A DNA stretch of 64,000 bases from a candidate division FCPU426 bacterium (GCA_963719085.1 CAVRAL010000001.1:576001-640000); one strand, 5' to 3'; positions 6,727 to 50,191 are shown, numbered from the stretch's first letter. The notes: generated from the letters alone by a model not told the origin. Program-made: numbers and translations.

Positions 6727-9036
6727 GTGGTGAAATACTTCCCATCGGTCCGAGGGTGTCATTTGATTTTGTTCTTCCTGGCATTATCCTTTTTGCTTTA
6801 TCAAAACATCCCCGCTTTTTCAGAAACCATTACGGTTGGGGATACCAACGTTTCCTTAAGCATGGACGGCCACCTTCAAGATTGGCCCGATTGTCGAATG
6901 ATTAATCTGGACAACGCTGATCAGGTGGTTGAGGGGAAGTTTTTTTGGAAAGGGCCGGATGATTTCAACGGCCGTATTTTTATCACCTACGACCAAGAAT
7001 TTCTCTATTTGGCGGCGGTCGTGACCCGCAACGGGACCCCGACTAACGCCAACGCCCCCGCGATCCTTTGGAACGGGGATTGCCTGGAGGTCTATCTTTC
7101 GACCGATCCCGATCCCGCCGACCATCGGCGGTTGACCCGGGGTGATTACCATATCGGCATTTCGCCCGGGACCAAGTGCGCGAATTCCCAAGTCTGGTGT
7201 TTCAACCAGGGGAAAGCCGTGCCGGGAGCGCGGGTAAAAGCCAAGAACTCAAAAAAAGGTTATGTGCTTGAGGCAGCCTTGCCGCTAAAATTTTTCTCGG
7301 GCTTGAATATCGGGCCTCGTCAAACTTGCGGTTTCAATGTGGCTTTGGATGAAGGGGGGGCGGTGAGCGGAAATCGATTGGTTCAAATGGATCTTTCGGG
7401 ACACGCCAACAGTTGGCAAAACCCCTCGGTTTGGAACCGGATCGAATGGATCGGCGCGACCCAGGTTGCGGTGCCCCCGGCTGACGAAGAGGATGAAAAT
7501 TCGATTTTGGTCAAAGACGGAACCCAAGGCGCCATCTTTTTGGGTGTTAAAACTCTCGCCGGAGTTGTTTTGGATAGCGGGGGGAAGCCGCTCGCGGGCG
7601 CGAAAGTGAGCACTTGGCCCGCCACGGAGCCGGTAACCACCGACGCCGCCGGAAAATTCACCCTTGCTCAGGTGAAGGTTTACCGCCAGACGGTCATTTA
7701 TGGGCGGCAAGACGGCTATTACACCTCGCTGGGAGTTCCCAATCCGGCTTCCTGGGCCACCACGATCCGGTTATCGGCCATGCCGGTCTCCGTTTTGGAT
7801 TCCCATCATGGGTTGAATCCTGTTTTTTGGGGGGCGAATATTTCATTGGCTCCGGGTGGTTTGAATCTGCCGACGGATTTGCCGGTGAGTTTGGTCAAGA
7901 CCTTAGGGTTGGGGATTCTCTGGCTCAAAGCGGATGGACTTGAGAATAGGGATCCGGCCGCCCAAAAGGATATCTTGGACCAATGGGTCGCCTATGCCCA
8001 GGCGATCGGGGCCGAGCCGGCGGTTGAGGTCCCGATTGGGCCCAACGCTTCCGATTTGGGAACCGAATGGGCGGGGATGGCCGGGGGTAAAATTCATTAT
8101 TGGACTCTGGGAAACGAACCGGACCGTCCGGCCCCCTCATTGTCCGTTTCTTTTCAAAATTACAACGCGTATGACTACATCAATGATTTTCGGGAATTTT
8201 ACAATTCGGTTAAAAGGGTTGATCCTTCGTTAATCGTTTTAGGGCCGAATTTGGCTTTCCCCGAGGCGGAAGACGCAAAAGACTGGCTGACTCCCTTTCT
8301 GCGGTTTGACGGGGACATCGTTAATCTTGTCTCAGCGGCCCATTACGCGGGTGATTCCCGGGCCCAGGCTTCCGCTTCGAATTTGGCGGAAGACGCCCGG
8401 GTATTCGCGCCGGATTTTCAAACACTCCAGAGCAAGGTTTCTCAAAACTCCGACATTTATATTCCGGTTGTCATCTCCAATGTCGGGCTTTATCCCGCGC
8501 CGGTCTCGATGTCCGCCCTGGGCGCCGCCGGTAGCGATCCGGTGACGGATTTCACGGACGCGCTTTGGGAAGCGGAAGTGGCGGGGACGCTGCTTCAAGC
8601 GGGGGCCTGTATGGGCGCTTTCGGCGACTTGGAAAGGCCGGATGGTTTGGGTCTCATTTCCAAGGGAAACCTAAATCCGGCGGCTTGGGTTTTGAAGATT
8701 TTCGCCGGCCGTTGGAAAGGGGTTCCTGTGACAGCCCAAGTTTTGAAACCATTGATCAGTGTTTACGCGGCGCAGGATCCCCAAACCAAGGATCTGTCGC
8801 TTTTTATTCTCAATCGAAGCCATCAATATTATTGGCTCAACATTTCCCTGAACGGACAAAGCGATGATTTGGCCGTGGACGCGGGCCTTGATTCCCATTT
8901 TCGCTTCGAGGTTCCGGATCAAGCGGTGGCTTCTTTAAGGATTAAGGCCGACCATTCGCCGGGGGACGCCGAGATTTATACGGCGAAGATGGCCGAGGCG
9001 GAACAAGCGCCTTCGGTCCAAGCCTTAAAACCTTGA
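6727..9036 (+). CDS. Secreted modular carbohydrate-active-like protein (CBM9/DOMON-like, carboxypeptidase-regulatory-like, clan GH-A-like barrel)
   Basis: Signal-like N-terminus; DGHLQDW, YDQEFLYLA, WNGDCLEVY and GYVLEAALP resemble CBM9-like sugar-binding domains; GVVLDSGGKPLAGAKV..TDAAGKF; YWTLGNEPD acid/base motif. Confidence 0.6.
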   Translation: MVKYFPSVRGCHLILFFLALSFLLYQNIPAFSETITVGDTNVSLSMDGHLQDWPDCRMINLDNADQVVEGKFFWKGPDDFNGRIFITYDQEFLYLAAVVTRNGTPTNANAPAILWNGDCLEVYLSTDPDPADHRRLTRGDYHIGISPGTKCANSQVWCFNQGKAVPGARVKAKNSKKGYVLEAALPLKFFSGLNIGPRQTCGFNVALDEGGAVSGNRLVQMDLSGHANSWQNPSVWNRIEWIGATQVAVPPADEEDENSILVKDGTQGAIFLGVKTLAGVVLDSGGKPLAGAKVSTWPATEPVTTDAAGKFTLAQVKVYRQTVIYGRQDGYYTSLGVPNPASWATTIRLSAMPVSVLDSHHGLNPVFWGANISLAPGGLNLPTDLPVSLVKTLGLGILWLKADGLENRDPAAQKDILDQWVAYAQAIGAEPAVEVPIGPNASDLGTEWAGMAGGKIHYWTLGNEPDRPAPSLSVSFQNYNAYDYINDFREFYNSVKRVDPSLIVLGPNLAFPEAEDAKDWLTPFLRFDGDIVNLVSAAHYAGDSRAQASASNLAEDARVFAPDFQTLQSKVSQNSDIYIPVVISNVGLYPAPVSMSALGAAGSDPVTDFTDALWEAEVAGTLLQAGACMGAFGDLERPDGLGLISKGNLNPAAWVLKIFAGRWKGVPVTAQVLKPLISVYAAQDPQTKDLSLFILNRSHQYYWLNISLNGQSDDLAVDAGLDSHFRFEVPDQAVASLRIKADHSPGDAEIYTAKMAEAEQAPSVQALKP

Positions 9037-9992
9037 GCCAGGGACAGGCGCGAATGCGGGAAGGAAAACCGGAGCCGGGAATGATTCAAGTGAATCCTCT
9101 GGACTCGCTTGTTTTTTGCTATCAGGCGGTTATCTCGCTGGTCATTCTTTTTTCAAAAATTCCCGATGAGGACAAGACTCGTTTATTGGTTGAGCATCTT
9201 ATCTTTTTTGCCGGTCTTGTTTTGTTTTTGAAGGTGGTTCAGGCTTTTGACAACCCGGCGGCCCGGTTTTTCCGGGAAATGTACCCTTTGATCTTGATGC
9301 TTTTCTTTTACAAGGAAGTGGGCTTGCTGATCCACGGCTATTTTGATTGGAGCCTGGATGACTGGCTTTTGAGCAAGGACTATCAATTGGGGCATATCGC
9401 CCTGTCGGTTTGGCATTTACAGCAGTTTCATCCGCCGTCCCGATTTTTAAACGAGATTTTCAGTTTGGGATACGGCTTTTACCTGGTACTTATCCCGGGG
9501 GCGGCTTTCATCCTCTATTTCCGGGCGTCGCTGGCGGTTTTCAGGACATTTCTATTTTCGATCAGCTTCACTTATTATCTATGTTACTTATTGTTCATTT
9601 TTTTTCCGGCGGAAAGCCCCCGGTTTTATATCCCCGGCCTTCGGGAGTCCCTTCAGGGCTATTACATTTCCGATTGGGTTCATACGGTGGTGGAAGGGAA
9701 CGCCTTTCCCGGCGGATCGTTTCCCAGTTCCCATATCGCCGCCTCGGTCATCTGCCTTCGCGCTTTTCCTTATTTAGGCCGGTTTCGCTACCTGGCGGGT
9801 TTTTTCATGTTGCTTTTGGTTTTGGGGACCATTTACGGACGTTATCATTATTTCATTGATGTGACAGCCGGTTTAGTAGTAGGTTTAGCTTGTTACGCAT
9901 TAGCGCCTTGGCTTCAAAAACGCTGGCCACTCGTCTTGAATTGGAAACAGGAACCCTATGGAAGACCCCAAGAAACCGCTCACGGAGGCTGA
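9033..9992 (+). CDS. PAP2-superfamily membrane enzyme, AUR1/inositol-phosphorylceramide-synthase-like subfamily
   Basis: Multiple TM helices; motifs FPAESPRF, SFPSSH, GRYHYFID; true start may be a downstream ATG (e.g. 9081). Confidence 0.8.
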   Translation: MSQGQARMREGKPEPGMIQVNPLDSLVFCYQAVISLVILFSKIPDEDKTRLLVEHLIFFAGLVLFLKVVQAFDNPAARFFREMYPLILMLFFYKEVGLLIHGYFDWSLDDWLLSKDYQLGHIALSVWHLQQFHPPSRFLNEIFSLGYGFYLVLIPGAAFILYFRASLAVFRTFLFSISFTYYLCYLLFIFFPAESPRFYIPGLRESLQGYYISDWVHTVVEGNAFPGGSFPSSHIAASVICLRAFPYLGRFRYLAGFFMLLLVLGTIYGRYHYFIDVTAGLVVGLACYALAPWLQKRWPLVLNWKQEPYGRPQETAHGG

Positions 9993-16818: not shown

Positions 16819-17661
16819 ATGAAAATCCCTTTTTGGATCGGTTTTTTGGGATGGGCGGTTGCCCCTGTGGTTTGGGGGGGAGATAGTTTCAAGGTCCCGC
16901 TTTATGATCCGGCGACCCACCAGGACATTCCGGCTCCCGGCCAACCGGCGTTCACCGCGACGCCCACGGCCGTCTTTTCTCCCGTGCCGACCGAGCCGCC
17001 GCAATCCTCCCTGACCCCGGTTTCGACCCGGGCTGGTTCCTTGCCCGGGCCTTTGAGCGCTCCCCAGTGGAATGAGGTGAAGACGGTTCCCGGAAACATT
17101 TCGACGGCTAAAAAAATGACGCCTTGGATGTCCTCGCTTGGAATTGGGCTCGATATACCGGCCGGCGCCCATGTTCAAAAGGGTTATGCCGTGGGGTTTG
17201 ACCTGAATTTGGGAACCGGGTATCGGCTCAACAGCCAGTGGTCGTTTTGGCTTAATTTGGCTTTAGGACAATTCAGCTCCCGGGACGACACGTTGACCCA
17301 AAACAATAACTTCATGATGATTGAGGCGGCTTTTTGGGCGCGTTATCGGATCAGCGAGGGTGATTTCAGCCCTTATCTTTTCGCCGGGCCGGGGTTGGCT
17401 TATAACGAAAATCGAAACGATCAGGCGGCTCAATACGACCCGGGGACGGGCACTTATTATGTTCCCATCGACCAATATGAAGTCGATTTTTTAGCTGAGG
17501 GCGGTTTGGGATTGGATGTGCGGGCGGGGGATGGTTTCCATGTTTTCCTGCAAGGCAAAATAATTTGTGACTTCACCTCAAGGCCATTTGGCAATTACGC
17601 CTCGATGGACAGCCCGGTCCTATTGGTGCCGGTTGATCTCGGGGTCCTGTTCGGCTATTAA
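16819..17661 (+). CDS. Putative outer-membrane beta-barrel protein with Pro/Thr-rich N-terminal segment
   Basis: Signal peptide, alternating hydrophobic strands (FSPYLFAGPGLAY, GGLGLDVR), C-terminal aromatic residue (GVLFGY). Confidence 0.6.
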   Translation: MKIPFWIGFLGWAVAPVVWGGDSFKVPLYDPATHQDIPAPGQPAFTATPTAVFSPVPTEPPQSSLTPVSTRAGSLPGPLSAPQWNEVKTVPGNISTAKKMTPWMSSLGIGLDIPAGAHVQKGYAVGFDLNLGTGYRLNSQWSFWLNLALGQFSSRDDTLTQNNNFMMIEAAFWARYRISEGDFSPYLFAGPGLAYNENRNDQAAQYDPGTGTYYVPIDQYEVDFLAEGGLGLDVRAGDGFHVFLQGKIICDFTSRPFGNYASMDSPVLLVPVDLGVLFGY

Positions 17662-17734: not shown

Positions 17735-19372
17735 GTGAACTTGTCGGCCTCATTTCCTTGGTTCTTCACTTCATCATTCCTGAAAAATGACGTTATGCAA
17801 GGGGTGTCCTTGTATTCAAAAGGGCGGTTATGGGGGAATCGGGTGGATAAGTTGGATTTGAGAAAATTTCGATCGGTTTTAATAGTTGGATTTTTATTCA
17901 TCCCCGGTTGGGGATTGGCCCAAATGACCGATACCCCGACTGAAACGCCTGTTTTTACCGATACGCCGTCAAGTACCCCGTCCTGGACCGGTACTTTCAC
18001 GTCTACGGCCACGGTTTTTTTATCCCCCACTCCAACCCCGACCGCCACTTTGGTTTTGACGCCTCCTTGCGGAACCGTGAACATATTTGGAAACTCGTCC
18101 ACGGCTAATACCGCCGGAGGGGCCGCTTCGTACAATCCGGGCGAGCGGGCCAGTGTTTTTCCCTTAGCGGGCGGGGGAGTGGTTTACAGTATTTCGCTTT
18201 ACGCCCAAGCCAGCGACGTGGGGATTCCGGTGGTGGCGGCTATTTTTAGCGGTGTGCCGGGCGTGATCGGCGGTTTGATTGTCCAATCGGCGCCTCAAAC
18301 CCTGGTGTTGGGCTGGAATGTCATTCCGGTTCAACCAACTTACTTGAACGCGAATTATTATTGGTTAGCCTATATGTTTGGAGGCTCCAGCTATCATGTG
18401 ACGGCCCAAACCGCCGCCGCGAACAGCGGCGTTTATACGACTTCCACGGTTACTTTCGGGTCTTTCTCCTCCTCCTTTACGGCGCCAACCACTATTTCGG
18501 TTTCAGACGCGATCTATGCCAACTATTGCCTGGCTACGGCAACCCCGACTTATTCTCCAACGATCACCTGGACTCCCACGGTGACCTTGAGCCCGAGCTT
18601 TACCCCGACGCCGACTTTGACGGATACCTTTACACCCAGCTTGACCCCAACCCCCAGCGTGACCGATACGCCGTCCCTAAGTCCGACCATGACGGCCAGC
18701 GAAACGCCTTCGGAGACTTCGACTTTAACCCTCACGGTCACTTTGACGCCGCAGGCTACCGATACGCCGACTTCCACTTGGACGGCCAGTTTGACGCCCT
18801 CTCAAACCTTGACGCAAAGCCCTACCGTGACGGATATCCCAACCGCGACAACGACCAGCGGCCTATCACCCACGGTGACTTTCACCGTAACTGTAACTGA
18901 AACGCCAACCGCTTCCGCGACTTTTAGCCCTTCCTCGACCCCCAGTCCCCTCGAAACCCAGACCTTGAGCCCCACGTTAACGCCCACGGTTTTGTCCACG
19001 ACTACCTTTACCGAGACGCCGACCGCGACCGTTTCGGCGACTTCAACGGCAACCGCGCTTTTGCCCAGTCCGACTTCTACGGCCACCGTCGGAGGGCCGT
19101 CTTCGCCCATCCTTTATCCCAATCCGATCCGTGGAAACGGCCCGGTTCAGTTTCAAGTCGACTTTGGGTCACCCCACGATTACGTGACGGTCCGGGTTTT
19201 TACGACGGCTTTCCGGAAAATTTACGAGACCCAAGACAAAAACGTTCCGGCGGGCGTCTATACAAAGGATCTAACTGGTTTTCAGCTCTCGGATACGGCG
19301 AATGGAATTTATTACGTGGTGATCACAACACCGACCGAGCGGTGGATGGATAAGCTTTTGATTCTTCGTTGA
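17735..19372 (+). CDS. Secreted Thr/Pro-rich (mucin-like) protein with T9SS-type-A/FlgD-Ig-like C-terminal domain
   Basis: Signal peptide ending WGLA-Q; about 185 aa of TxTPT repeats; C-terminal LYPNP...ANGIYYVVI...KLLILR; true start probably further downstream (GTG/TTG near 17843-17857). Confidence 0.75.
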   Translation: MNLSASFPWFFTSSFLKNDVMQGVSLYSKGRLWGNRVDKLDLRKFRSVLIVGFLFIPGWGLAQMTDTPTETPVFTDTPSSTPSWTGTFTSTATVFLSPTPTPTATLVLTPPCGTVNIFGNSSTANTAGGAASYNPGERASVFPLAGGGVVYSISLYAQASDVGIPVVAAIFSGVPGVIGGLIVQSAPQTLVLGWNVIPVQPTYLNANYYWLAYMFGGSSYHVTAQTAAANSGVYTTSTVTFGSFSSSFTAPTTISVSDAIYANYCLATATPTYSPTITWTPTVTLSPSFTPTPTLTDTFTPSLTPTPSVTDTPSLSPTMTASETPSETSTLTLTVTLTPQATDTPTSTWTASLTPSQTLTQSPTVTDIPTATTTSGLSPTVTFTVTVTETPTASATFSPSSTPSPLETQTLSPTLTPTVLSTTTFTETPTATVSATSTATALLPSPTSTATVGGPSSPILYPNPIRGNGPVQFQVDFGSPHDYVTVRVFTTAFRKIYETQDKNVPAGVYTKDLTGFQLSDTANGIYYVVITTPTERWMDKLLILR

Positions 19373-20572: not shown

Positions 20573-21724
20573 TTAAGCGAGTGGTTTCTCGTAGATGCGG
20601 TATTTCTTGATGATTTTCCCGCCCATGGCCGCGATGCCGTTGTTGATGCCCTCGTTATCTTCCAAGGTCCAGGACAACTCGCCGCCCTTGATTTTGCGCT
20701 TATTGCCGGTCTTTAAGGCTTCCAAGTAAAGCACGGCTTCCAGGCCTTTTTTGCGGTATTCGGGGAGCACGCCCATGGCCATTTCCCGGGTATCGTCAAA
20801 CTTACAGGTGAGGAATTTCACTAGGGCGAAGGGATCGTGCCAGGAAAAAAGTTCCCCGTCCATCTTGATGAGCGCTTGGTTGACATCCGGAACCACCAAG
20901 TTAAAACCGATGGCCTTGCCTTCCACTTCGGCAAACACCACAAAGTCGGGCCAGACGATGTCCTTAAGTTTTTTGACCTGGTAATTAAACTCTTCGTCCG
21001 TCATCGGGACAAAGCCCCAGTTTTTCTCCCAAATTTTGTTGTAAAGCTCTTTCAAAATGGCGGCGTCTTCGTAAAGCTTTTTCATGTTGAGCGGACGAAT
21101 AGTGATTTTTTCCCGCTGTTTCGTGCGCTCGGCGATTTTGACGATGCGTTCGGGCAGCTCAATCTGGGCGCTGAGATACCAGGCGTAAAGATCCTTGGCT
21201 TTGGTCAAGCCCGCTTTTTGGGACAGGTCGTGGTAATAAGGCGGGTTATAGGTCATGGCGATGCGGGCGGGGGAGTCATAACCTTCCAAAAGAAACCCGA
21301 AATAATCGTCGTTCGAGGTAAAGCTGGCGGGGCCGCGCATGCTGGTCATTCCTTCGGCCTTGAGAAATTTTCCGGCTTCTTGGAACAAAGCTTGGGCCGC
21401 CGATAGGTCGTTGACACATTCAAACCAACCGAAGAAACCTACCTTCTCGTTCCAAAACTTGATGAAATTGTCGTCCACGCTGGCTGAGATGCGGCCCACC
21501 ATTTCGTTTTTATCGTCGTAAGCGGCGAAGAGGGCCACCTTGGCGTGCTTCCAGAAGGGGTTTTTGTTGGGGTTTAACAGGCTTCGTTGATCATCCAGAA
21601 AGGGAGGGACCCAGTTGGGATCTTTTTTACCGTCGGCGGTTTTATAGATTTTCCAAGGGAGATGAAGAAAGGCTTCCAATTCTTTTTTGTTTTCGACATG
21701 GATCGGCTTAACCGTGACGGCCAT
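20573..21724 (-). CDS. GNAT-family N-acyltransferase (YghO-like), candidate bacterial ceramide synthase bCerS
   Basis: DPNWVPP, VGRISA, GFFGWFEC, RGPASF, YNPPYY, NWGFVP, GVLPEYRKKG, LSWTLEDN; co-oriented downstream of spt-like gene; start set at ATG 21724 with AAGGAG RBS (track start 21739). Confidence 0.75.
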   Translation of the reverse strand: MAVTVKPIHVENKKELEAFLHLPWKIYKTADGKKDPNWVPPFLDDQRSLLNPNKNPFWKHAKVALFAAYDDKNEMVGRISASVDDNFIKFWNEKVGFFGWFECVNDLSAAQALFQEAGKFLKAEGMTSMRGPASFTSNDDYFGFLLEGYDSPARIAMTYNPPYYHDLSQKAGLTKAKDLYAWYLSAQIELPERIVKIAERTKQREKITIRPLNMKKLYEDAAILKELYNKIWEKNWGFVPMTDEEFNYQVKKLKDIVWPDFVVFAEVEGKAIGFNLVVPDVNQALIKMDGELFSWHDPFALVKFLTCKFDDTREMAMGVLPEYRKKGLEAVLYLEALKTGNKRKIKGGELSWTLEDNEGINNGIAAMGGKIIKKYRIYEKPLA

Positions 21725-21774
21725 GGCAAGCTCCTTCAAGAGAATGAGGTTTTATTTGATTCAAAAACCAGGGA

Positions 21775-22956
21775 TCAGGGAATCAATCCGTATTTTTTTC
21801 CAACTTTTTGAAAGCTTTCCAACACGTGGGTGAGTTGGGCGTCGGTATGGGTGGAAGTGTAGGACGTGCGGATCAAAGTTTTTTCGGACGGAACGGCCGG
21901 CGAGACGATGGGCGTCGCGAAGACACCCATTTCGCCCAGTTCCTTCGTGATGGCGAAGGTTTTCATGTTGTCGCCGATCATCAAAGGAATGATGGCTGAA
22001 TCGGTATTAAGCGTGTTCCAGCCCATGGCCTTAAATTCCGAGCGCATGCGCTTGATGATTTCCCAAAGACGCGTGCGGCGTTCGGGCTCCCGTTTGATGA
22101 TTTCCAGGCTTTTTAAAGCCGCGGCCGTATCGGCGGGGGACAGGCTTGCGGTAAAGATAAGTGGACGGCTGTTGTGCCGCAAATAATCGATCACTTTGTG
22201 GGTGGAGGCGATGAAGCCCCCGATGGAAACGAGGGATTTGGAGAAGGTTCCCATGACCATATCCACGTCTTTTTGGACCCCGAAATGGGCGCCGACGCCT
22301 TCGCCTTGCGGACCCAAGACTCCGATCGAATGGGCCTCGTCGACCATGAGCCGGGCGTTGTACTTTTTCTTTAATTCCACGATTTTGGGCAAGTTGCAAA
22401 TATCGCCCCCCATGGAAAAGACGCCGTCGGTCACGATCAGTTTGGGATCATCGGCATGGTTGGCCAAGACCCGTTCAAGCTCTTCCATGTTGCTATGCTC
22501 ATATTTGACTGTTTTGGCGAAGGAGAGTTTTTGGCCGTCCACAATGGAGGCGTGATTCTCCCGGTCGGAGATGATGTAGTCGCCCCGGTTGGCGATGGTG
22601 GAAAGCGCGCCCAGATTGGCCAAAAAACCCGTGGAATAAACCAGGGCTGATTCCATATGGACGTAATCGGCCAGTTTTTCCTCAAGTTCCACCCGAATAT
22701 CCAAGGTGCCGTTTAAGAAGGGGGAACCGGTGCAGGCGGAGCCGTATTTACGAACCGCCTGGACCATGGCTTCCAAGACTTCGGGGTGGGTGACCAGCCC
22801 CAGGTAGTTGTTGGAGCCGACCATGATCATTTTTTTGCCGCCGATGGTCACTTCGGTTCCCATTTGGGAGGTGTTAGGGCGGAAATAAGGATAGACGCCC
22901 GCCTTGCGGACATCGTCCGCGGCCGTCCAATTGTTCGCCTTGTCAAAAATGTCCAT
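21775..22956 (-). CDS. spt: PLP-dependent alpha-oxoamine synthase, probable serine palmitoyltransferase
   Basis: GVYPYFR, GSNNYLGL, GSPFLNGT, NHASIVDG, DEAHSIG, GTFSKS (PLP lysine); context with bCerS-like GNAT; start at ATG 22956 with GAGGTG RBS (track start 23013). BioF or Kbl not formally excluded. Confidence 0.75.
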   Translation of the reverse strand: MDIFDKANNWTAADDVRKAGVYPYFRPNTSQMGTEVTIGGKKMIMVGSNNYLGLVTHPEVLEAMVQAVRKYGSACTGSPFLNGTLDIRVELEEKLADYVHMESALVYSTGFLANLGALSTIANRGDYIISDRENHASIVDGQKLSFAKTVKYEHSNMEELERVLANHADDPKLIVTDGVFSMGGDICNLPKIVELKKKYNARLMVDEAHSIGVLGPQGEGVGAHFGVQKDVDMVMGTFSKSLVSIGGFIASTHKVIDYLRHNSRPLIFTASLSPADTAAALKSLEIIKREPERRTRLWEIIKRMRSEFKAMGWNTLNTDSAIIPLMIGDNMKTFAITKELGEMGVFATPIVSPAVPSEKTLIRTSYTSTHTDAQLTHVLESFQKVGKKYGLIP

Positions 22957-23024
22957 GACACCTCTTTTTTGAGTTGTGATCGTTTCGGGTTCCACGCTGT
23001 TTCCTTGCTTCAAAAGGTGCGGGC

Positions 23025-23054
23025 ATTATAAGATAGCGCCGCTATGTTAATCAA
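23025..23054 (-). promoter_or_regulatory. Putative sigma70 promoter for spt operon with a palindrome in the spacer
   Basis: Minus strand TTGATT-18 nt-TATAAT; palindrome ATAGCG-C-CGCTAT at 23033-23045. Confidence 0.5.
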
Positions 23055-23084
23055 ATTATTTACCCCCCAATTCCCTTAGTTTCC

Positions 23085-24068
23085 ATGAACTTTCCTATCC
23101 TTGTGACCGGCGCCAGCGGATTTGTGGGAGGCCATTTGGTCGAGGCGCTCACCCGTCAAAAAAAGAAAGTCAAACTGCTCGTCCGCTCTTCCAGCCGGCT
23201 GATTTTTAAACGTACCGCGAATCTTGAACTATGCGAGGGGGATGTCACCGACAAGCCGTCCGTCGAAAAAGCCATGCGAGGGGTTGAGACGGTCTATCAT
23301 TTGGCGGGTCTTTTGCGGGGGGCGAATTACGCCGATTACGAAAAGGTCAATGTCGATGGCACGCGGAATATTTGCGAGGCCTTCGCCCGCCAAAAGAAAA
23401 AGAACCGGTTGATTTACGTTAGCTCGCTTTCGGCCGCCGGACCCTCTGAAAAGAATGGCGCGTTGACCGAAGAAATGGCCCCCCGGCCCGTCAGTTTTTA
23501 TGGTCAAACCAAACTCGGCGGGGAAGAAGTGGTGCGGTCTTACCGGCGACGGATGAAAATAGTCATCCTTCGTCCGGGTGCGGTTTACGGTCCCCGGGAA
23601 AAAGACATTCTCGAATATTTTAAAATGGTGAGGCAAGGGTGGGTTTTGATTCCCGGCAAAGGGTCTTTGGAAGTCAGCTTTGTTTATGTGGCGGACTTGG
23701 TCCAGGCGATCCTTTTGGCCGGGAAATCCCCGAAGGCCCCGGGAAACACCTTTTTTGTCTCTGATGGGAAAAGTTACACTTGGGAAGATTACTCAGCGGT
23801 GATCGGGAAGGCCCTCCACCGCCCCTTCCGTGTTTTGCATGTGCCCATGGTTTTAGTCAAAGGTACGGGCTATTTGGCCGATTTAAAGGCCCGTCTTACC
23901 GGAAAGGCGTCCATTGTCAGTACGGATAAGATTAAAGAAGCGCCGGGCCCGGGATGGGTCTGCAGTAACGAAAAAATTGTAAGGAAATTGGGGTTTAGGC
24001 CCCGCTATGATATCGAGCAAGGCATCCGCCAATCGGTCGATTTCTATTTAAAAGCCGGGTGGATCTAA
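23085..24068 (+). CDS. NAD(P)-dependent epimerase/dehydratase-family (extended SDR) oxidoreductase, candidate ceramide reductase
   Basis: TGASGFVG, VYHLAG, YVSS, YGQTK (YxxxK), RPGAVYGP; divergent from spt. Confidence 0.8.
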   Translation: MNFPILVTGASGFVGGHLVEALTRQKKKVKLLVRSSSRLIFKRTANLELCEGDVTDKPSVEKAMRGVETVYHLAGLLRGANYADYEKVNVDGTRNICEAFARQKKKNRLIYVSSLSAAGPSEKNGALTEEMAPRPVSFYGQTKLGGEEVVRSYRRRMKIVILRPGAVYGPREKDILEYFKMVRQGWVLIPGKGSLEVSFVYVADLVQAILLAGKSPKAPGNTFFVSDGKSYTWEDYSAVIGKALHRPFRVLHVPMVLVKGTGYLADLKARLTGKASIVSTDKIKEAPGPGWVCSNEKIVRKLGFRPRYDIEQGIRQSVDFYLKAGWI

Positions 24069-24093
24069 GCCGAAAAATTTGGGGGAGACGACG

Positions 24094-25206
24094 ATGAAAT
24101 ATTTTCTTTTGGCTTTTTGCTTGTTGATGACGAGTTTCACCAAGGGTTGGGCCCAAGAGGGCTCCGTGGATTCGCTGCTTCCCCCCGACCACATTTTGGA
24201 GGATGTTCCCTGGCTGGACGATGGCGGCAAAGTGGAACAAAAGGGTCTTTTCAGCTTTGAGGATATCCGGGCGGTTGACTCAAAAGATTTACTTCTGATC
24301 TACCGCTCCTCGGACTCTTCCGAGGATTTGACCCAGCCTCATTCCCAAACCCTGGTGGTTTGTTTTTATAACCCGACCCAAAAAAAATATGAAAAAGCTT
24401 ATTCGGAAGAAGGACAGGAAATTCAATGGGTGAAAGTGGTGTCCGATATTTCGCTGAAAAAAAGCTTTCTTTTCGTGGACCGCTTGAACGCGGACGGACA
24501 GCAGGTTTTAAAGGCCTACGCCTGTTTGAATAATGTCATTCAGCCGGTTTTGGAAGCGCAAACAGCCCACGTTTACGCCGGCTTTTTGAACGATGCGAAG
24601 GGATTCTCGGTTCTCTGCTCCGACAAGGTCATCCCTCAAAGCGAGGCGGACGCGGAGCATTTGTTTAAGTGGAATGACGGGAAATCCCTTTTTGTGGAAG
24701 CGGCTTCCACGCCGGCGGATGGATGGATGGGTTCCTCGATCGCGGGCGCCGGATCGGTTGTGGCGGTGGCGACACCCGTCGCCTCAACTCCCCAGCCGGT
24801 CGCGGCCGCTGTAACGCCGCCATCAGCCGCGGCGACTCCGGTGGCCGTGATTTCAACTCCGGCCCCCGTGGCGGCTTCCACGGTGTCCAAGGATTGGTGG
24901 GGAACGCCTTTCGACGCCGCCGGCGCGTCGGCTAAGTTGGATAATGAAATTGTGCCGCAAGCCGTGAAGGCCGGACAAATGGCGGTCTTGGGCAAGAAGG
25001 CCAACGGCTTCTTCCAAAAGGCGCGCGAACAGGGCGTCAACGCGCCGGCGTTGGCCAAGATGAGGGCCGGTTACTACTTGGCGGTGGCCTCCACCCTTTC
25101 GGGGATGAGCCAGGATAAAGACGCGGCTTACTATTTGGATTTGGCTTTGAAGCTTGACCCGACTAATGCCCAGGCTCTGGATTTAAAAACGAAATTAAAA
25201 TCCTGA
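24094..25206 (+). CDS. Exported hypothetical protein with Ala/Thr/Pro linker and C-terminal TPR-like repeat
   Basis: Signal peptide [25 protein letters not shown] repeats; [25 protein letters not shown] before ATG 24094. Confidence 0.7.
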
Positions 25207-25456: not shown

Positions 25457-27796
25457 TTGGTCCTGAATGGTTTGTTATTTCTTATTTTGGCCGCGCTTGC
25501 CGCCGGAACGGGCTTTTCGGCGCTTCTTCCCTCACTCGGCGCTTTTTTCGACATTCCCTGGACACTGGATGTTTTTTCGAAAACTTGGGAATTGAAACTG
25601 GCCGCTCTTTTTTGGAGCGGGGGGATCGTATTGGGGCTGGCGGGTTGGACTGAAAGTTTTCGGATTTTTTTATTCGGGCATGACCGTTCTGCGGAAATAG
25701 GTCCCCTTTGTTTTGGCATCAGCTTGGCCGGGTTTTCCCTTTTTGTTTTCGGGTTAGGGGTGAGTGGAATCTTCTTTTCGCCCTTGGTGGTAATTTTCTT
25801 TTTTGTCCGCGTTCCGGCGGGCATGAGACTGCTGTCCGGACCCTGGTTTCACTCCTGGACGCCCGCGCAAAAAGGACTTCTTTTGGCGGGCTTGCTGCCC
25901 TGGTTTTTCGAGTACGCGTCCCCGCCCATCCTGTTTGACGCGGTTTTAGACCATTTTCGGTTCGCCGAAGAAGTCGCTCGCCTTCATCAAATCCCATTTC
26001 ATTGGATCAATCACACGGGTGATATCCCCAAAGGCGCGGAGTTAATCTGGGCGGGTTTTTGGGCCTTGGGCGGTGAAACGCTTGCCCATTTATTAAGCGC
26101 GCTTCCTTTCGCCGGACTTATCTATCTTGGGATGAGTCTGGCCCGTCGTCTTCAGCTTCCCGAATGGCCCGGTGTTTTTATTTTGGTGGCTTGTCCCTTT
26201 TGGATGGCGCTTTTTAGCTGGGGTTACGATGAAGGCTTGCTGGCTTTTTATGAGGTGTTGGCGCTTGTCGGTTTGATGATCGGGTTTGGGAAAAATAAGT
26301 CACCGGCGGGCTTGGGACTTTGTTTCTTTTTTCTCGGCGCGGCCCTGGGAGTGAAATACACGGCTCTATTCGCCTGGGCGGGAATCACGGCGGTATTCAT
26401 ATATCAGACGTTTTTTGAAAAGGACCGGGTCCGGTTTGACCTCCGATGGGTTCTTTTCGCGCTGATCCCTTGCCTGCCTTGGCTTTCGCGCGATGCGCTG
26501 GCCAATGGAAATCCCTTTTACCCCATGGCGTCCGCTTGGTTTGGGGGACCGCCGGGATACAATTCGTCCCTCGAGGCGGACCTCTGGCAGGATACGGGCC
26601 GGGGAAGCGCCGGACTGACTTGGATGGGTGCGCTCAAAACCCTTTGGGTTGATTTTGGTACCGGGCGAAACCAAGTGGGGGCGGTTTTATCCCCCCTTCT
26701 TTTAATGGCGGTTCCGCTTTGGGGAAGGCTTCGAAAATTTTCAACAGCGAGGTTTTTGTTTTTATTCGCAGTTGTTTTTTTTGGCGGCTGGATTGTTTTT
26801 TGCACCAACCTTCGCCATGCCGCCGGCGGGTTGTTGGCGCTCGCCCTTTTGTCCGGGTTAGCTTGGGCTTCGGTTTTTAAAAGTTCCCCCAAACTTCTGC
26901 GATGGGTTTTTGGTTTGGGTTTGATCGTTTCATTTTGGATGGTCTGGGTCGCCCAAATCAACACGACCCTGCCTTATGGATGCGCGCTGGGATTTCAAGA
27001 CCCCTTGACGCGGCTCAAAAGAAACTATGTCATGGATTTCGACACCTTTTCGGCTTATGAGGCGATTGAAAAGTCCTCCGCGGCCGTTGATAAGTCGATG
27101 GCTTTCGCCGTTTATCAAACCTATCCTTTGCGGCGGACCGCCTTTGTTGATTTTTTCTGGAAGCAGCCTATTTTTTTCAATTGGGTTTCCCAATGCCAAA
27201 CCGCGGGACAATTGGCCGAGAAATTAAAGCGGGAAGGGGTCGTTTGTTTTCTTTATCAAAGGTCGGAATCGGCTTTTATGTCGAAAAAAGAAAAAGATTT
27301 TCATTGGAGCGGAATGCCGATCGATGAATATACTCGCTTTTGGGAATATTACACCGAACCCATCGAGATTTTTGAGAACTCCTCGGTTTATCGGATCCTC
27401 GCGACGCCGCTCCCGGAGCCGCGGAAACTAACCGACTTGCCGGGACTGGAGGAAGCGGAAGGGGCGGCCTTGTTCGCGGACCAGCAGAAGGGGCAATGGC
27501 AAGCGGCCTACCAGACAGCGGCGGATTTGACCCGCCAGCGGCCCGAAATTGGATTTGGCTGGGAAAGACGGGCCTATTACGCGGGACGGTTAGGCGATTG
27601 GAAAGAGGCGGTGAAATCGGGTGATCGGGCGGAAGGGTTGGGGAGCGAAACTTTGGATTTGTGCGATACAATGACCTTGAGTTGGGTTCAATTGGGGCAA
27701 CCGAAGCTTGCGGTTTCCTGGAATGAAAAGCGCGAGGCTCGTTCTCGCTGGTTGGAGGGATTAAAGCTTGAATCCTTATCTTTTGAAGAGGAATAA
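25457..27796 (+). CDS. Polytopic membrane protein, GT-C/PMT-like glycosyltransferase candidate with C-terminal TPR-like region
   Basis: Many TM helices; PPILFDAVLDH loop, GVKYTA, GNPFYP motifs; helical C-terminus. Confidence 0.55.
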   Translation: MVLNGLLFLILAALAAGTGFSALLPSLGAFFDIPWTLDVFSKTWELKLAALFWSGGIVLGLAGWTESFRIFLFGHDRSAEIGPLCFGISLAGFSLFVFGLGVSGIFFSPLVVIFFFVRVPAGMRLLSGPWFHSWTPAQKGLLLAGLLPWFFEYASPPILFDAVLDHFRFAEEVARLHQIPFHWINHTGDIPKGAELIWAGFWALGGETLAHLLSALPFAGLIYLGMSLARRLQLPEWPGVFILVACPFWMALFSWGYDEGLLAFYEVLALVGLMIGFGKNKSPAGLGLCFFFLGAALGVKYTALFAWAGITAVFIYQTFFEKDRVRFDLRWVLFALIPCLPWLSRDALANGNPFYPMASAWFGGPPGYNSSLEADLWQDTGRGSAGLTWMGALKTLWVDFGTGRNQVGAVLSPLLLMAVPLWGRLRKFSTARFLFLFAVVFFGGWIVFCTNLRHAAGGLLALALLSGLAWASVFKSSPKLLRWVFGLGLIVSFWMVWVAQINTTLPYGCALGFQDPLTRLKRNYVMDFDTFSAYEAIEKSSAAVDKSMAFAVYQTYPLRRTAFVDFFWKQPIFFNWVSQCQTAGQLAEKLKREGVVCFLYQRSESAFMSKKEKDFHWSGMPIDEYTRFWEYYTEPIEIFENSSVYRILATPLPEPRKLTDLPGLEEAEGAALFADQQKGQWQAAYQTAADLTRQRPEIGFGWERRAYYAGRLGDWKEAVKSGDRAEGLGSETLDLCDTMTLSWVQLGQPKLAVSWNEKREARSRWLEGLKLESLSFEEE

Positions 27797-43976: not shown

Positions 43977-46900
43977 GTGAAAACAAAGAGAAACCCGTTG
44001 GGGGCGGAAGGTTTTTGGCGCAAACCCGTTTTGGGCTTAATGTTGTCTCTTTTAGTGGGCGGCCTTTTTCGTTTCTATAACCCGAATTGGGACTATGAGC
44101 ATTCTTTTCATCCCGATGAACGCAATATTCTGGGGCAAACGGCCGGCATTCAAGCTTCCAATGGTTTTAGAGTCCAGTTTTTCGCCTACGGCCAGCTTCC
44201 CGTGTTTCTGTACCGGGCGACGGGTGAATTGTTATCGACGCCGCAAGTTTTAGCGCAGGCCTTCGGGGCTCATCAAGGTTTTGCCCAGAGTTTCTATTGG
44301 CTTATTATTTTGGGGTTTTCAAGCCTTGGGTTTTGGTTTTTTAAAAAGGAAAAATATAAGATAGCCGCTTTTGGTTTGTCGGTTCTCTTATTTTCCCTGG
44401 CTTTGTTGTTGAAGTTTTTTCCTGTTTTCGCTATTTGGTTTAACGCCTTACAGGATTGGCCGGCAAGATTGTCCTGTTTTGGCTGGGTCACGGTCACAGC
44501 CTTTGTGGTTTCCGCGTTACTTTCGAAAATACTCGAGGCGGATTGGCTCGGAATCCCTTTTTACGCGGCCAGCGGATCAATCTTTTTATTTGGAGTCCTT
44601 CCTCTCTTTTTGCCCGACGCTTGGGGGCACACTTTTGGCGCGACCGCTTTTACCCTTCTCATTTTGGTTTTGGGCGCTTGGCTGGCCTGGGTCACCCGGT
44701 GGGGCAGGGTTCTTTTGGCCTTTTTGGCCTTGTGGACGGTTTTCGCTTCGCTTCAGCACGGCGGCATCCAGTACGTGGATTACGGCAGTTTGATGATTAT
44801 TGGCCGTGTCTGGGCCGCTTTCTTTTCAACCGCAACGATCGCCGCGCTTTATGTCTTGGTCAACCGGCTTTACGGTAAGCCCTGGTTGGCGCTTCTGTCC
44901 GCCGCTTGTTTCGCCTTTTCAGTGGTTAGTATCCAAGTCGCCCATTACTGCATCACGGAATCTCTCATCACGCTGATGCTGGTGGTCGTCGCCACACTTG
45001 CCTGCGACATCCGCGAGAATGGTAGTTGGAAAAGTTATTTACTCACGGGATCCGCTTTTGGCATTTCGATGGCGGCGAAAACCAGCTCCCTTTATTACCT
45101 CTTAATTCTCCTACTGGGGCACATTCTTTTTCTCGCCGCGAAAAGCAAAAAAGATTGGTTGAGGGAAGACCGCAAAAACTCCGATAACAAAGACATTTTC
45201 ACGATTCTGGCGGCGGCGGTTCCGGTGGCCACGTTGGCGGCTTTTGTGGTCGTAGGATACAAGCTCAAGGGCGTCGCCCAAGATCTTTTCTACAACGGCG
45301 ACGGCTCGGTCATCCCCCCGGTTTGGCTGGCTTTTTTTGTTCTGGCTGTCGGGGTGGGTTTGGTTTTGTGTTTTTGGGGTTTTGTTGAATTCAAGGTCGT
45401 GCGCGGACAGGCCCAATACTGGATCAAGCTGGTGGCGGCCGGTGCCTTATCTTTTTTGATGTTTTGTTTGCTATCGCCTTGGTCGCTTCTTGATTTTTCC
45501 GGATTTCAAAATTCGATGAATTATGAATGGCATGTGGTTTCCATCGCGGACGCTTGCTACGTTTTGCAGTTTAAAGATACTTTCCGTTACTTGTTTCATC
45601 TTCAGAACCTAATGTCGGTTGAATTGTGGTGGCCTTTAGGCGTAACGGTGATTTTGGGATCGATTTGGGTGATTGGGCGTTTCGTGCTTTCTTTGTTTCG
45701 GGTGTCCGAGTCTTACGTTTTGCCGGTTCCGTTTTTAGTCCAAAAGGGGATTTCGCCTTTTGTCCCCGATTTGATGCTTTTGATTTGGTTTATTCCTTAT
45801 TTCGGTTTCATCGGGGCGTGGAACACAAAGTTCATTCGATATATGGTTCCCTTGATACCGTTTTTCTGCATTTTTGGCGCCCGCTTATTGACGGAGCTCT
45901 TTGACTGGTTGAAAAAGACTCCGGCCTTGGCCAAAGGTTTTAAAATCGCCCTGCTCTCAATCGTATTAGGCGGAAGCCTATTTTATTCCACGGCCTATAT
46001 GCATGTGTATCGATTCCCGCATCCCTGGCTTGACGCTTCCGTATGGATTTATAAGAACGTCCCGCCGGGCTCGCTGATCTTCAATGAGGCTTGGGGTGAC
46101 GGACTTCCCGTGGATATGACGCCGCAGCAAGACGCCCGGCTCGATCATTTTATGAGCCCGAGCCTTTATCGCTCCCAAGACATCACGCCCTATGAAATGT
46201 TCGGTTATCCCACGGACGACAGTCCGGTGAAGCGAAATTACTACGCCAACACGCTTCAGCAAGGCGATTACATCAGCATTTCGTCCAAAAAGCTTTGGTA
46301 TACGCTGACCAATTGCACGCCCGAATTTAAGCGGACTGGTTTTAATGCTTATCCTATTACGTCCCGCTATTACCGGCTCCTGTGGTCCGGTTTATTGGGC
46401 TACAAAATGGTGGGTGAATTCCATAACTTTCCCTCGCTTTTTGGGTGGGAGCATCCGGACGATATGGCGGAGGAATCTTTCTCGGTTTACGACCATCCCC
46501 GGGTTTATATTTTCAAAAAGTTTGAAACGGTTCCGCCGGATCAAATTTTGAAGTTGTTGGACTCGGATGATTACGTGAAGGGAATCGACCGGGATGTAAT
46601 GCGAACCATCACGCCTGAAAATGTGGACGCCTTTATTGCGGGTCGGCAGAAATATTTATCCGACAACGGTTTATTACAACGGCTGGCCGCGGCGCCCGCT
46701 TCGACGGGTTCTTTGGCGCCGACACCCGTGGCAAAAGATTCCACCCCTCTGCAGAGGATTCTGACGGCAACCGCCCAACCGCCCAAGCCCGCCGTGCAGA
46801 AGCGGCTGGAATCATTGACGCCGATCCCAACGCCCGAACCGACGATCGTGGTTCCTTTGGGAGCGCCGGGACTTCCGCCCGCGGGTACGCTTCAGGTTTT

Positions 46901-49900
46901 AAAAAATTTAACCGATCACCCAGTGACGGAAACCGATTTAGCCGCTTTTGAGCAAAAACAACAATCCGACGAGACGCTGGGTTATCAAATTCGGGCTTGG
47001 CTGAGTTGGTTGTTGCTGATTATTTTCCTGGGCCTATTGGCTTTTCCCTTATCGCTCAAGCTGATGGAATCCATGCCGGCGGCCGCTTACTCCTTGAGCA
47101 AAATTTTAGGGATGATTCTTTTTGCTTGGTTGGTTTGGATTTCCTCGTTCAGTTGGAAGGTGTTTAGCTTCCATTTCAAGATTTTTTATTTTTCGACTTT
47201 CAATTGTTGGGCTTGGATTTTGTTTTTAACGGTTGGCAGCGGCTTGGGTCTGTTTTTTCACGGCAAAGGCTTGAAATCGATCTGGAGCCGGTGGCATAAA
47301 GTTTGGTTGATTCAGGACGTTTTTTTCATCGGGGCTTTCGCCCTTTTCACCTTGGTCCGTGTTTTTAATCCTCATATCCATGATCCCAGCGGTTCTGGCT
47401 ATAACGGCGGTGGGGAAGCGGGAATGGATTTAGGCTTTTTATCCTCCGTGGTTCGCGGGGACAGTTTCCCTCCACAAAACATGTGGATGGCGGGACAGCC
47501 GATCGGATATCCCTATTATTTCGGCCACATCTTGATGGGAATTTTAACCAAGACCCTGGGATTGGCTCCTGCCGTGACCTACAACTTGGCGATCATCACC
47601 CTCTTCGCCCTTATTTTTTCGGCGGCTTTTAGTTTGGCTTATGCCTTATCGGAGAAACTGAGCGGCGGGATCATTGCCGGGCTTCTTTGCGCCACCGCGG
47701 GCAATTTGGACGGCGCCAAACAATATTTGCGCGACATCGGTGATTGCCTATCGCGTAATGATTGGACTTTGAGCGGACTTTGGAACTCCACCTTCGATTA
47801 TTGGGGTCCCTCCCGGGTGATTCCGCACTCGATCAACGAGTTTCCATACTTCAGCGTGCTTTTCGCCGATATGCACGCCCATACCTTGGCCATGCCTTTC
47901 GCCATGCTTTTAGTCGGACTGATCATGTCTTTTTATTTCTCGAATTCCGCTGGAACCAAAATCAGGTTTGAGTGGCCCTTGCTCTTGGGAATGGGTTTTC
48001 TCTTAGGCGGCCTGGCTTTCTTAAACACCTGGGACACCCTGACATGGAGCGCGCTGCTGGTGATCGCGTTGCTGTTAAAGATGCTCGCGTCTTTTCCCCG
48101 TAAGACTTTGGTGGATGGATTTAAGATAACGGCCACTGTTTTTGGGGCGGTTTTTGTTCTTCTGGCCGCTATTAACAAAATCCATCCCTCGGATAATCCC
48201 GCCGTGCTGGGCGGGACGACGACAAACCTTGAAATCGGTCTTCTGGCGGCGAGTTTGATCTCCTGCTCGATTTTGTACTCGCGGAAAATAACCCAGCCCT
48301 TGTCGATTCAATTTTTAATTTGCGGATTGTTTTTGGCCGGTGTGGGTCTTTCGGCGCGGGTGTTATGGGATCCTTTCTTTTCCACTTTTGTTCCGCAACA
48401 AAGCAAAATTTTGTGGGTGTTGCCCTATATCCGAACCGCCTGGGGAAATTATTTCACGATTTACGGCGCGTTTCTCTCGGTCATGGTTTGGGGATTCTTG
48501 CTGGTTTATGCCAAGCCGATAGGAAATTGGATCGGCAAAGGCAAATGGAGAATTTCTTGGGATTTTGAGGGTTTTCTTGGAACTTGCGAGGTGTTTTTTC
48601 AGAGATTTTTTGAACCGCAAAACGCGGTCCAGGGCATGTTTTTCCTGGGGCTGGCTTTGTGCCTTTTCATTATTGGGGGATCTTGGATCCATTGGGTGGA
48701 TCCCCAGAATCGAAGTGTTTGGGCTCTGCTGTTGGCGGCCGTGATTTTTGGATTGTTGATTTTGCCGCTTTATCTGAGAAAAATTCCAGCGTTTGGGGCC
48801 GCGGCTGGGGTTTTAATCCTGGTTTGGGTGGGCCTCATCGTCACCGGTGTTTTCCCTTTATTTCACGACAGCCCGCTTTTTCTGGGTTTGGGACTTTTTT
48901 CCGCCATTTGGATATTGGGTTTCTTGAATCTGGGCTTGGCGGTCCAAGCTCAAAAAGATAAAAAGCTCTCTTTCGCGTTTATCCTCATTGGTCTCTTTTT
49001 CTTGGTGACGGCCACGCTGGAAATTTTCGCCATCAGCGAGTACATGGGCGACGAAAGTATGCGCAATAACACGCTGTTCAAATTCGGCATTGACGCCTGG
49101 ATTTTGGCGTCCATCGCGACCGGCGCCTTGGCGCCAAGACTTTGGAACTTCGCGTCGGAGTTGTTGAAGTCCGTTCGAAAGGAAACCAAACTGTCCGAAA
49201 TGGTTTTGGCCGGATTTTCTTTTGTGGTGATCTCCTGGCTGCTTCATGTTCTTTTGGACGAGATTCTTTTTTCTCGTTCTTCGAATTTGATTTATTTCAT
49301 AAATTTATTTCTTGTGCTGAGCATTTTAGCTTGGATCTTCCTGGAAGATTGGTTGGCGCCCTGGATCGTCTATACCCTCGGGGGCGTTTTATTCCCGGTT
49401 TTGATACTGCCTTTATTGCCCAACGGAGACTATACGTCGCTTTTATACGTGGCTCAGCGTTTTCTGGGGAGCTTTGATACCGGCTTTTTATTCCCGGCGA
49501 GTTTGGTGATTTTTGTTTTGATTGTCCTTCATTTATTTTTGGAAAATAAGAAAAACAAGGGGATGCGAATCGCCGTGGCGAGCTGGAAATCCTTGGCGGT
49601 GGTTTTAAGCGTGATGGTTTTGATTTATCCCTTGGCCGCCACCTTCAGCAAATGCCGGCAAGCCTCGTTTGGCTCATCCGATTCGCCCACCCTCAATGGC
49701 TTGACCTATCTGAAAATGGAAAACCCGGGAGACGCGGCCGCCATTCGTTTCTTAAATGAAACGGTCCCGGGCCAGCCTTGTTTAATCGAGGCGGTCGGGC
49801 TTGGGTATAACACCTGGGGTTCCCGTTATTCCATTTTCACCGGAATCCCGGCTTTAATGGGATGGGACGGGCATGTGCGGGAATGGGTGGGGAGTTGGGA

Positions 49901-50153: not shown

Positions 50154-50191
50154 TTGAGTTTGGGTGTCTATTAATTTTGGAGGTTGAGTGA

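Follow-up and report, generated by a model that had tools for sequence, protein, structure and literature searches.

A compact candidate locus for bacterial ceramide synthesis in a little-known soil phylum

We analysed a 64,000-nucleotide stretch of DNA from a candidate division FCPU426 bacterium (G000:C1:576001-640000, hereafter the window; the genome is 3.04 Mb in five contigs and 99% complete), which is detected in public soil metagenome runs. At 20573..24068 it carries three genes whose predicted products resemble the enzymes of the known bacterial ceramide pathway, namely Spt (serine palmitoyltransferase), bCerS or CerS (the ceramide synthase of bacteria) and CerR (ceramide reductase). 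A first-pass annotation of the sequence had proposed such a pathway here, and open reading frame (ORF) calling located the three genes at the places it had given:

20573..21739, minus strand: tandem-GNAT N-acyltransferase, candidate bacterial ceramide synthase (bCerS / CerS / YghO family), 388 residues from TTG 21739
21775..22956, minus strand: alpha-oxoamine synthase of the Bacteroidota/delta-proteobacterial Spt type by its scores, 393 residues from ATG 22956
22957..23084, no strand: divergent spacer between spt and the reductase gene, 128 bp from the coordinates
23085..24068, plus strand: extended short-chain dehydrogenase/reductase (SDR), candidate CerR, 327 residues, PF01370 (Epimerase)

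As the annotation had described, the GNAT and synthase genes are co-oriented, the synthase gene lies head-to-head with the SDR gene, and the motifs GVYPYFR, GSPFLNGT and GTFSKS all occur in the synthase translation. Pfam assigned the synthase to aminotransferase class I/II (PF00155, 200.4 bits, residues 42-381) and the SDR to PF01370 (135 bits), and gave the GNAT protein a weak match to PF00583 (22.2 bits against a cut-off of 20.7), its sole family. The GNAT protein likely starts at ATG 21724, five codons inside the TTG, which fits the 383-residue gene call on record for this genome. The synthase ORF extends to TTG 23013 (21775-23013, 412 residues), and its relatives align from residue 1 of the 393-residue form. 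The gap between the GNAT and synthase genes is 35 nt by the coordinates, or about 50 nt with the ATG start, and the two genes probably form one transcript, with the SDR gene read divergently out of the shared 128-bp spacer. A promoter-like site lies on the minus strand of the spacer (23054-23025, TTGATT-18-TATAAT, 10 of 12 matches), which is weak evidence; scans of the region for promoters (4 sites found, 4.4 expected) and terminators (15 found, 10.7 expected) were at chance level.

The synthase scored best as a serine palmitoyltransferase. Its top NCBIfam match was the Bacteroidota-type Spt model NF047600 (518.9 bits), followed at a distance by the models for bioF (390.6), Kbl (384.2, and 321 for a second Kbl model), 5-aminolevulinate synthase (281.2) and CqsA-type enzymes (235.5); the other Spt models gave 375.6 bits (beta-proteobacterial) and 319.1 bits (alpha-proteobacterial, NF047603). 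Similarly, the best solved relative was the SPT of Sphingobacterium multivorum (3a2b; 416.8 bits, residues 5-388), ahead of Thermus BioF/Kbl (288.4) and Sphingomonas SPT (279.8); Escherichia coli Kbl reached 270.5 bits and one cysteate fatty acyltransferase 252.9. The lead of the Spt model over the BioF and Kbl models, and likewise that of the SPT structure, is at least 128 bits. A BioF distinct from the window synthase is encoded next to bioD and bioA in this genome, divided between two contig ends; because the host thus has its own BioF, we conclude that the window synthase is not the biotin enzyme. This BioF appears twice (G000:C5:47345-51355 and G000:C1:1439478-1441998) in mostly identical copies with different C-terminal tails; bioD and bioA come after the one on C1, and the duplication has the look of a disrupted copy or of an overlap in the assembly.

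We then mapped the 15 active-site residues named around the pyridoxal 5'-phosphate (PLP) cofactor and L-serine in S. multivorum SPT (PMC10196870) onto the window synthase by alignment. Lys240, in the GTFSKS motif, aligns to the PLP lysine, Lys244, and 13 of the 15 residues are kept: Asn52, Gly80, Ser81, Phe114, His138, Ser185, Asp210, Ala212, His213, Thr241, Ser243, Lys244 and Ala274. The remaining two are changed, Met271 to Ile and Ser273 to Thr. These substitutions in the pocket could fit an alternative in which the same three-step logic serves another amino acid and gives a sphingolipid-like lipid in place of a serine-derived ceramide, for example a sulfonolipid (capnine type, from cysteate) or a long-chain base that is 1-deoxy or derived from glycine. 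It is chiefly the substrate pocket that sets such alpha-oxoamine synthases apart (PMC13692747), S. multivorum SPT itself uses alanine and glycine at low efficiency (PMC10196870), and Black Sea bacteria make 1-deoxysphingolipids (PMC11334938). However, positions 271 and 273 act partly through main-chain atoms, and the water contacts of the serine hydroxyl (Asn52, Gly80 and Ser243) and the carboxylate anchor (His138) are retained. Cysteate enzymes form a clade of their own (PMC13692747), and the solved cysteate acyltransferase scored 252.9 bits on the window synthase against 416.8 for SPT. We therefore regard a different amino acid substrate as unlikely and serine as the favoured one.

Of the families that the first-pass annotation had named for comparison, Spt, rather than BioF or Kbl, was the one with which the synthase grouped, in the NCBIfam scores, in the structure scores and in a tree. 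The tree, a quick IQ-TREE search, comprised 48 rows (42 synthases encoded beside GNAT relatives, the window synthase, one from locus L056, the E. coli enzymes Kbl, Spt and BioF, and the host BioF) and no HemA, cysteate-acyltransferase or Sphingobacterium sequences. In it, a branch with 96% support in the Shimodaira–Hasegawa-like approximate likelihood-ratio test (SH-aLRT) separates all 43 GNAT-linked synthases, the window's included, and E. coli Spt from the Kbl of E. coli, the two BioFs and the synthase of L056.

This placement bears on a second alternative, namely that the synthase is a glycine C-acetyltransferase (Kbl) acting with the SDR as a threonine dehydrogenase in threonine breakdown, the GNAT gene being an unrelated neighbour. 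Genes for Kbl commonly neighbour one for a threonine dehydrogenase of the extended-SDR type, E. coli Kbl was the best pairwise E. coli match of the window synthase (270 bits), and no other Kbl candidate turned up in the host genome. By contrast, the Kbl models reached 384 and 321 bits where the Spt model reached 519, Kbl lies outside the 96%-supported branch, and the SDR matched the solved threonine dehydrogenases 3a1n and 7cgv with 44-53 bits, as opposed to 128 bits for the epimerase of the E. coli spt cluster. In addition, two features described below tie the GNAT gene to Spt-type synthases, namely their adjacency at 41 of 80 loci and the existence of gene fusions. Threonine breakdown is thus a highly improbable function for this locus, and assignment of the synthase to the Spt type is preferred.

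The GNAT protein had no match in NCBIfam and none below E 0.1 in a sequence search of the Protein Data Bank, and an ESM Atlas search returned generic GNAT clusters only. An AlphaFold2 model built from a 33-sequence alignment (pLDDT 94.2, pTM 0.91) shows a tandem-GNAT fold: the top Foldseek matches of the predicted structure among Protein Data Bank entries were the tandem-GNAT proteins 2wpw, 5kf1, 7q3a, MshD, FemX and N-myristoyltransferase, with E values of 1.5e-13 to 1e-9 and template-modelling (TM) scores of 0.53-0.61. On the E. coli BL21(DE3) chromosome, the sole match of the GNAT protein was yghO (E 2e-65, 33% identical across the full length), and in the reverse search the one match of YghO in the host genome was the window GNAT protein, so that the label 'YghO-like' given to it earlier proved to be literally right. 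The yghO gene (ECD_02850) has been paired with Caulobacter CC_1154 as the N-acyltransferase in dihydroceramide synthesis (PMC9386255). A fusion of LptF/LptG with a GNAT domain, labelled Caulobacteraceae, also matches the window protein (33% identity over 97% of the query); this recalls the position of CC_1154 in Caulobacter, where it sits beside second LptF/LptG genes (PMC11324152). These sequence comparisons support the GNAT protein as a candidate N-acyltransferase of the bacterial ceramide synthase family.

The SDR carries a nucleotide-binding motif, GASGFVG, at residue 9 and a Tyr-x3-Lys motif, YGQTK, at residue 139. No solved protein matched it with more than 77 bits, the best being a sugar epimerase. 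Mitochondrial NDUFA9 (6g2j_P), to which CerR has been likened (PMC11087976), scored 45.2 bits (E 5.9e-11), under several sugar epimerases. In E. coli BL21 its best match was the epimerase-family gene inside the spt cluster (100.2 bits; next, 49.7), and the best match of that epimerase in the host genome was the window SDR (101.7 bits; next, 26); BLASTP aligned the two over their full length (128 bits, E 3e-39). We equated this epimerase gene with ECD_02852 by its place in the cluster. In PMC9386255, ECD_02852 is paired with CC_1164 as the reductase and ECD_02854 is spt, and the earlier description of the SDR as a CerR-like, epimerase-family reductase is borne out by the reciprocal best match to this counterpart of CC_1164.

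To place the cluster among its relatives, we scanned species-representative genomes with a 12-sequence GNAT alignment, which yielded 598 relatives, and analysed the best 80 loci by searching their flanks with the window proteins using tblastn. A synthase was present in the flank of 45 of the 80 loci and, in 41 of these, directly upstream of the GNAT gene, co-oriented and within 700 bp. The SDR was found at 35 loci, and synthase and SDR together at 33. The synthase-bearing loci carry the labels of 12 phyla, Myxococcus included, and show two recurrent layouts. In the window, and at loci with the labels Bacteroidota, Ignavibacteriota and Zixibacteria, the SDR gene is divergent from spt-GNAT; in Myxococcota and others, all three genes share an orientation, in the order spt-GNAT-SDR. 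Thirty-five loci had no synthase in the flank; five of these were searched genome-wide, and in all five genomes another place encodes a synthase of the Spt type, which at 366-510 bits outscores the BioF- or Kbl-like paralogues. In Myxococcota loci (L009 6275-7933 and others), the Spt ORFs run about 120 residues beyond the synthase domain without a Pfam match; this stretch fills the gap of about 440 bp before the GNAT gene and may be a real extension or a chance GC-rich open frame.

The same association was seen within the host phylum, which we surveyed in 99 species-level genomes sorted into families f1 to f23 (one member is labelled Candidatus Firestonebacteria). The Spt type was present in 53 of the 99 genomes, with a clear gap in score between hits (at least 378 bits) and the next matches (at most 305 bits). 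Of these 53 genomes, 52 also carry the GNAT gene (E <=1e-20), the exception being 84% complete, and 49 have an SDR match (E <=1e-25), the four others being 66, 84, 92 and 98% complete. All of these genomes belong to families f1 to f9, and the GNAT gene was found in none of the 34 genomes of families f10 to f23. The architecture differs between families: f1 to f3 have the genes side by side; in f4 to f7 the GNAT gene lies on another contig and the SDR gene is still divergent beside spt; and five genomes of f8 and f9, two sister families, carry Spt joined to GNAT in frames of about 800 residues. Co-occurrence in many phyla and within the host phylum supports the earlier reading of the three genes as one pathway.

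Several side observations were made in this set. Two genomes of the same genus, G023 (98% complete) and G024 (92%), have no SDR match at E <=1e-25; G023 has a fused Spt-GNAT gene, and in G024 the Spt and GNAT matches lie on short separate contigs. The SDR copy of G049 contains three in-frame stops. Relatives of the same family as the host carry the submitter label 'uncultured proteobacterium'.

Two of the Spt-GNAT fusions of the host phylum, at L102 (2705-5056) and L103 (2385-4772), are single ORFs of 783 and 795 residues. The fusions extend beyond the host phylum: two further ones (P0309 and P0322) have an Spt-type N-terminal half (NF047600, 539 and 470 bits). Among 112 long GNAT relatives in a wider protein collection, 81 were GNAT-GNAT proteins, 25 synthase-GNAT, three LptF/G, one a ketosynthase fusion and two of other kinds; synthase-GNAT fusions, about 780-850 residues long, make up at least 27 protein clusters outside the host-phylum genomes. 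The few named GNAT-GNAT proteins are labelled Planctomycetota (Pirellulales, Thermoguttaceae). The fusions of GNAT to an LptF/LptG permease domain comprise three clusters, one of them labelled Caulobacteraceae, and that of a beta-ketoacyl synthase to GNAT one cluster. In the literature searched, we found no mention of natural Spt-bCerS fusions, only of experimental tag fusions, and the words 'fused' and 'fusion' are absent from the accessible text of PMC11334938, whose supplement was outside the search, as was the primary 2022 paper on the Caulobacter pathway.

Taken together, these sequence data indicate that the locus very probably represents the ceramide pathway already known from bacteria, made up of spt, bcerS and cerR. 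By analogy with the characterised Caulobacter and Sphingobacterium enzymes, we infer the following mechanism. The PLP enzyme (21775-22956) would form 3-ketosphinganine by condensing a long-chain acyl thioester and L-serine. Acyl-CoA is the probable thioester, since no gene for a dedicated acyl carrier protein (ACP) or an acyl-ACP synthetase is evident beside the synthase. The tandem-GNAT protein (20573-21739) would next N-acylate the amine of 3-ketosphinganine from a second acyl thioester, and the extended SDR (23085-24068), with NAD(P)H, would reduce the 3-keto group, yielding dihydroceramide. The order of acylation and reduction is disputed between two groups (PMC11087976, PMC11324152). Natural Spt-GNAT fusions fit N-acylation straight after condensation, as circumstantial evidence.

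A number of observations weigh against this interpretation. The synthase falls below the curated cut-off of NF047600 (518.9 against 640 bits). The Spt of Myxococcus dinghuensis that adjoins a GNAT gene also misses it (514.2 bits), so the cut-off seems to be tuned to Bacteroidota; Myxococcus xanthus has been placed in the Bacteroidetes/delta-proteobacterial SPT subgroup (PMC9386255). In pairwise scores E. coli Kbl, at 270 bits, stands slightly closer to the synthase than does E. coli Spt, at 253.8 bits, which fits the two distinct SPT subgroups of PMC9386255. In the tree, E. coli Kbl, Spt and BioF, the host BioF and the L056 synthase are long branches, and the sampling and quick search noted above count here too. 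The links from the GNAT protein to CC_1154 and from the SDR to CC_1164 both run through E. coli genes that were themselves assigned by homology in PMC9386255, and the SDR is 25% identical to its E. coli counterpart. Caulobacter CerR has been reported as periplasmic (PMC11087976), and in the window SDR the Rossmann motif begins at residue 9, leaving no room for a signal peptide; the N terminus of the E. coli epimerase homologue begins alike. The GNAT family is broader than the ceramide pathway: it comprises 6,907 representatives at E <=0.001, the 81 GNAT-GNAT proteins are head-to-tail duplications of the whole protein (about 770-800 residues), and 8 of the 60 GNAT-bearing genomes of the host phylum have no Spt-type match, which argues against a strict one-to-one link. 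Finally, no RNA run containing the stretch was found among the public runs.

The locus can be compared with several known systems. In Caulobacter crescentus the pathway consists of Spt (CC_1162), CerS/bCerS (CC_1154) and CerR (CC_1164) (Stankeviciute et al. 2022 and Olea-Ozuna et al. 2021, as cited in PMC11087976, PMC11324152 and PMC9386255). Common to Caulobacter and the window are the three enzyme classes, namely an alpha-oxoamine synthase dependent on PLP, an N-acyltransferase of GNAT type and an SDR of the epimerase family, and the window GNAT and SDR are the reciprocal best matches of the E. coli counterparts of CC_1154 and CC_1164. However, the window genes are contiguous, whereas CC_1154 lies several genes from spt in Caulobacter; the window cluster has no evident acpR (dedicated ACP), aasR (acyl-ACP synthetase) or adjoining LptF/G paralogue; and its Spt belongs by score to the Bacteroidota/delta-proteobacterial subgroup and not to the alpha-proteobacterial one (NF047600, 519 bits, compared with 319 for NF047603). 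The E. coli BL21(DE3) cluster runs yghO, fatty acyl-AMP ligase, epimerase, ACP and spt (NC_012971 2989282-2994885), and BL21 is reported to form ceramide-like compounds (PMC9386255). YghO and the epimerase are 33% and 25% identical to the window GNAT and SDR over their full length, and a further likeness is that the acyltransferase gene diverges from the other genes of the cluster. Unlike the window, the E. coli cluster adds the acyl-AMP ligase and ACP genes, then lptG/lptF paralogues, and its Spt is of the beta-proteobacterial type (NF047599, 599 bits) and 37% identical to that of the window.

S. multivorum SPT (3a2b, 8guh; PMC10196870) is the closest solved relative, with 13 of 15 active-site residues in common. 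In Bacteroidota the three pathway genes are reported to be unclustered, whereas they are clustered in the window; more generally, Spt, bCerS and CerR genes are often clustered on the genome (both PMC11334938). From metagenome-assembled genomes, the same paper predicted that 38 phyla of the Black Sea make sphingolipids, which took the phylum count from 9 to 40. Its clusters rest on the same kind of evidence, homology and co-location, and both layouts that we observed are such clusters; the window lineage differs in coming from soil and from a small uncultured phylum. The first-pass annotation had suggested that the locus would extend sphingolipid synthesis to an under-studied lineage. The reading of the genes as a pathway cluster is supported, but the significance was overstated, as such clusters have been predicted for about 40 phyla (PMC11334938).

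Our literature search found no paper naming Firestonebacteria together with sphingolipids; the phylum list of the Black Sea study stands in a figure and a supplement outside that search. It is conceivable, though we hold it only tentatively, that the host lineage, a small soil phylum with the pathway in nine families and three architectures (clustered, split and fused), is a sphingolipid producer not yet listed, and that the Spt-GNAT fusions provide independent genetic support for the order condensation, N-acylation, reduction.

Downstream of the SDR gene lie two further genes:

24079-25206, plus strand: 375-residue protein with a hydrophobic N terminus and a faint tetratricopeptide repeat match in Pfam
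25457-27796, plus strand: 779-residue protein with long hydrophobic stretches and no Pfam family match

The pair is possibly co-transcribed with the SDR gene. It keeps its order after the SDR gene in two loci of the same family (L004 and L005, 38-46% identity) and in none of the 78 others, and because it follows the SDR in two same-family loci only, we rejected it as part of the pathway. Elsewhere in the window, a PAP2_3-family membrane protein (9033-9992, plus strand, 58.4 bits) is encoded about 10.6 kb from the cluster. On the GNAT side, a 545-residue Thr/Pro-rich repeat protein without a family match (17735-19372, plus strand) adjoins an outer-membrane beta-barrel-like gene (16819-17661), and these two genes recur beside the GNAT gene in genomes of the same family. 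At 43977-52699 (plus strand), two adjacent DUF2298 membrane proteins of 2,058 and 835 residues are encoded amid glycosyltransferase, methyltransferase and NHL-repeat genes.

Judged from its sequence, the locus makes a sound addition, though an ordinary one, to the examples of a known pathway, and the picture of that pathway is unchanged. The finding helps annotation, as public records name the window proteins just 'GNAT family N-acetyltransferase' and 'NAD-dependent epimerase'. The Spt-GNAT fusions are the more useful by-product, since they bear on whether acylation or reduction is the second step. Should the three genes function in the way proposed here, ceramide-based lipids would be part of the envelope in members of this little-known phylum from soil, which would add one more lineage to the growing number of producers, which, if true, may be of use in reading environmental lipid surveys.

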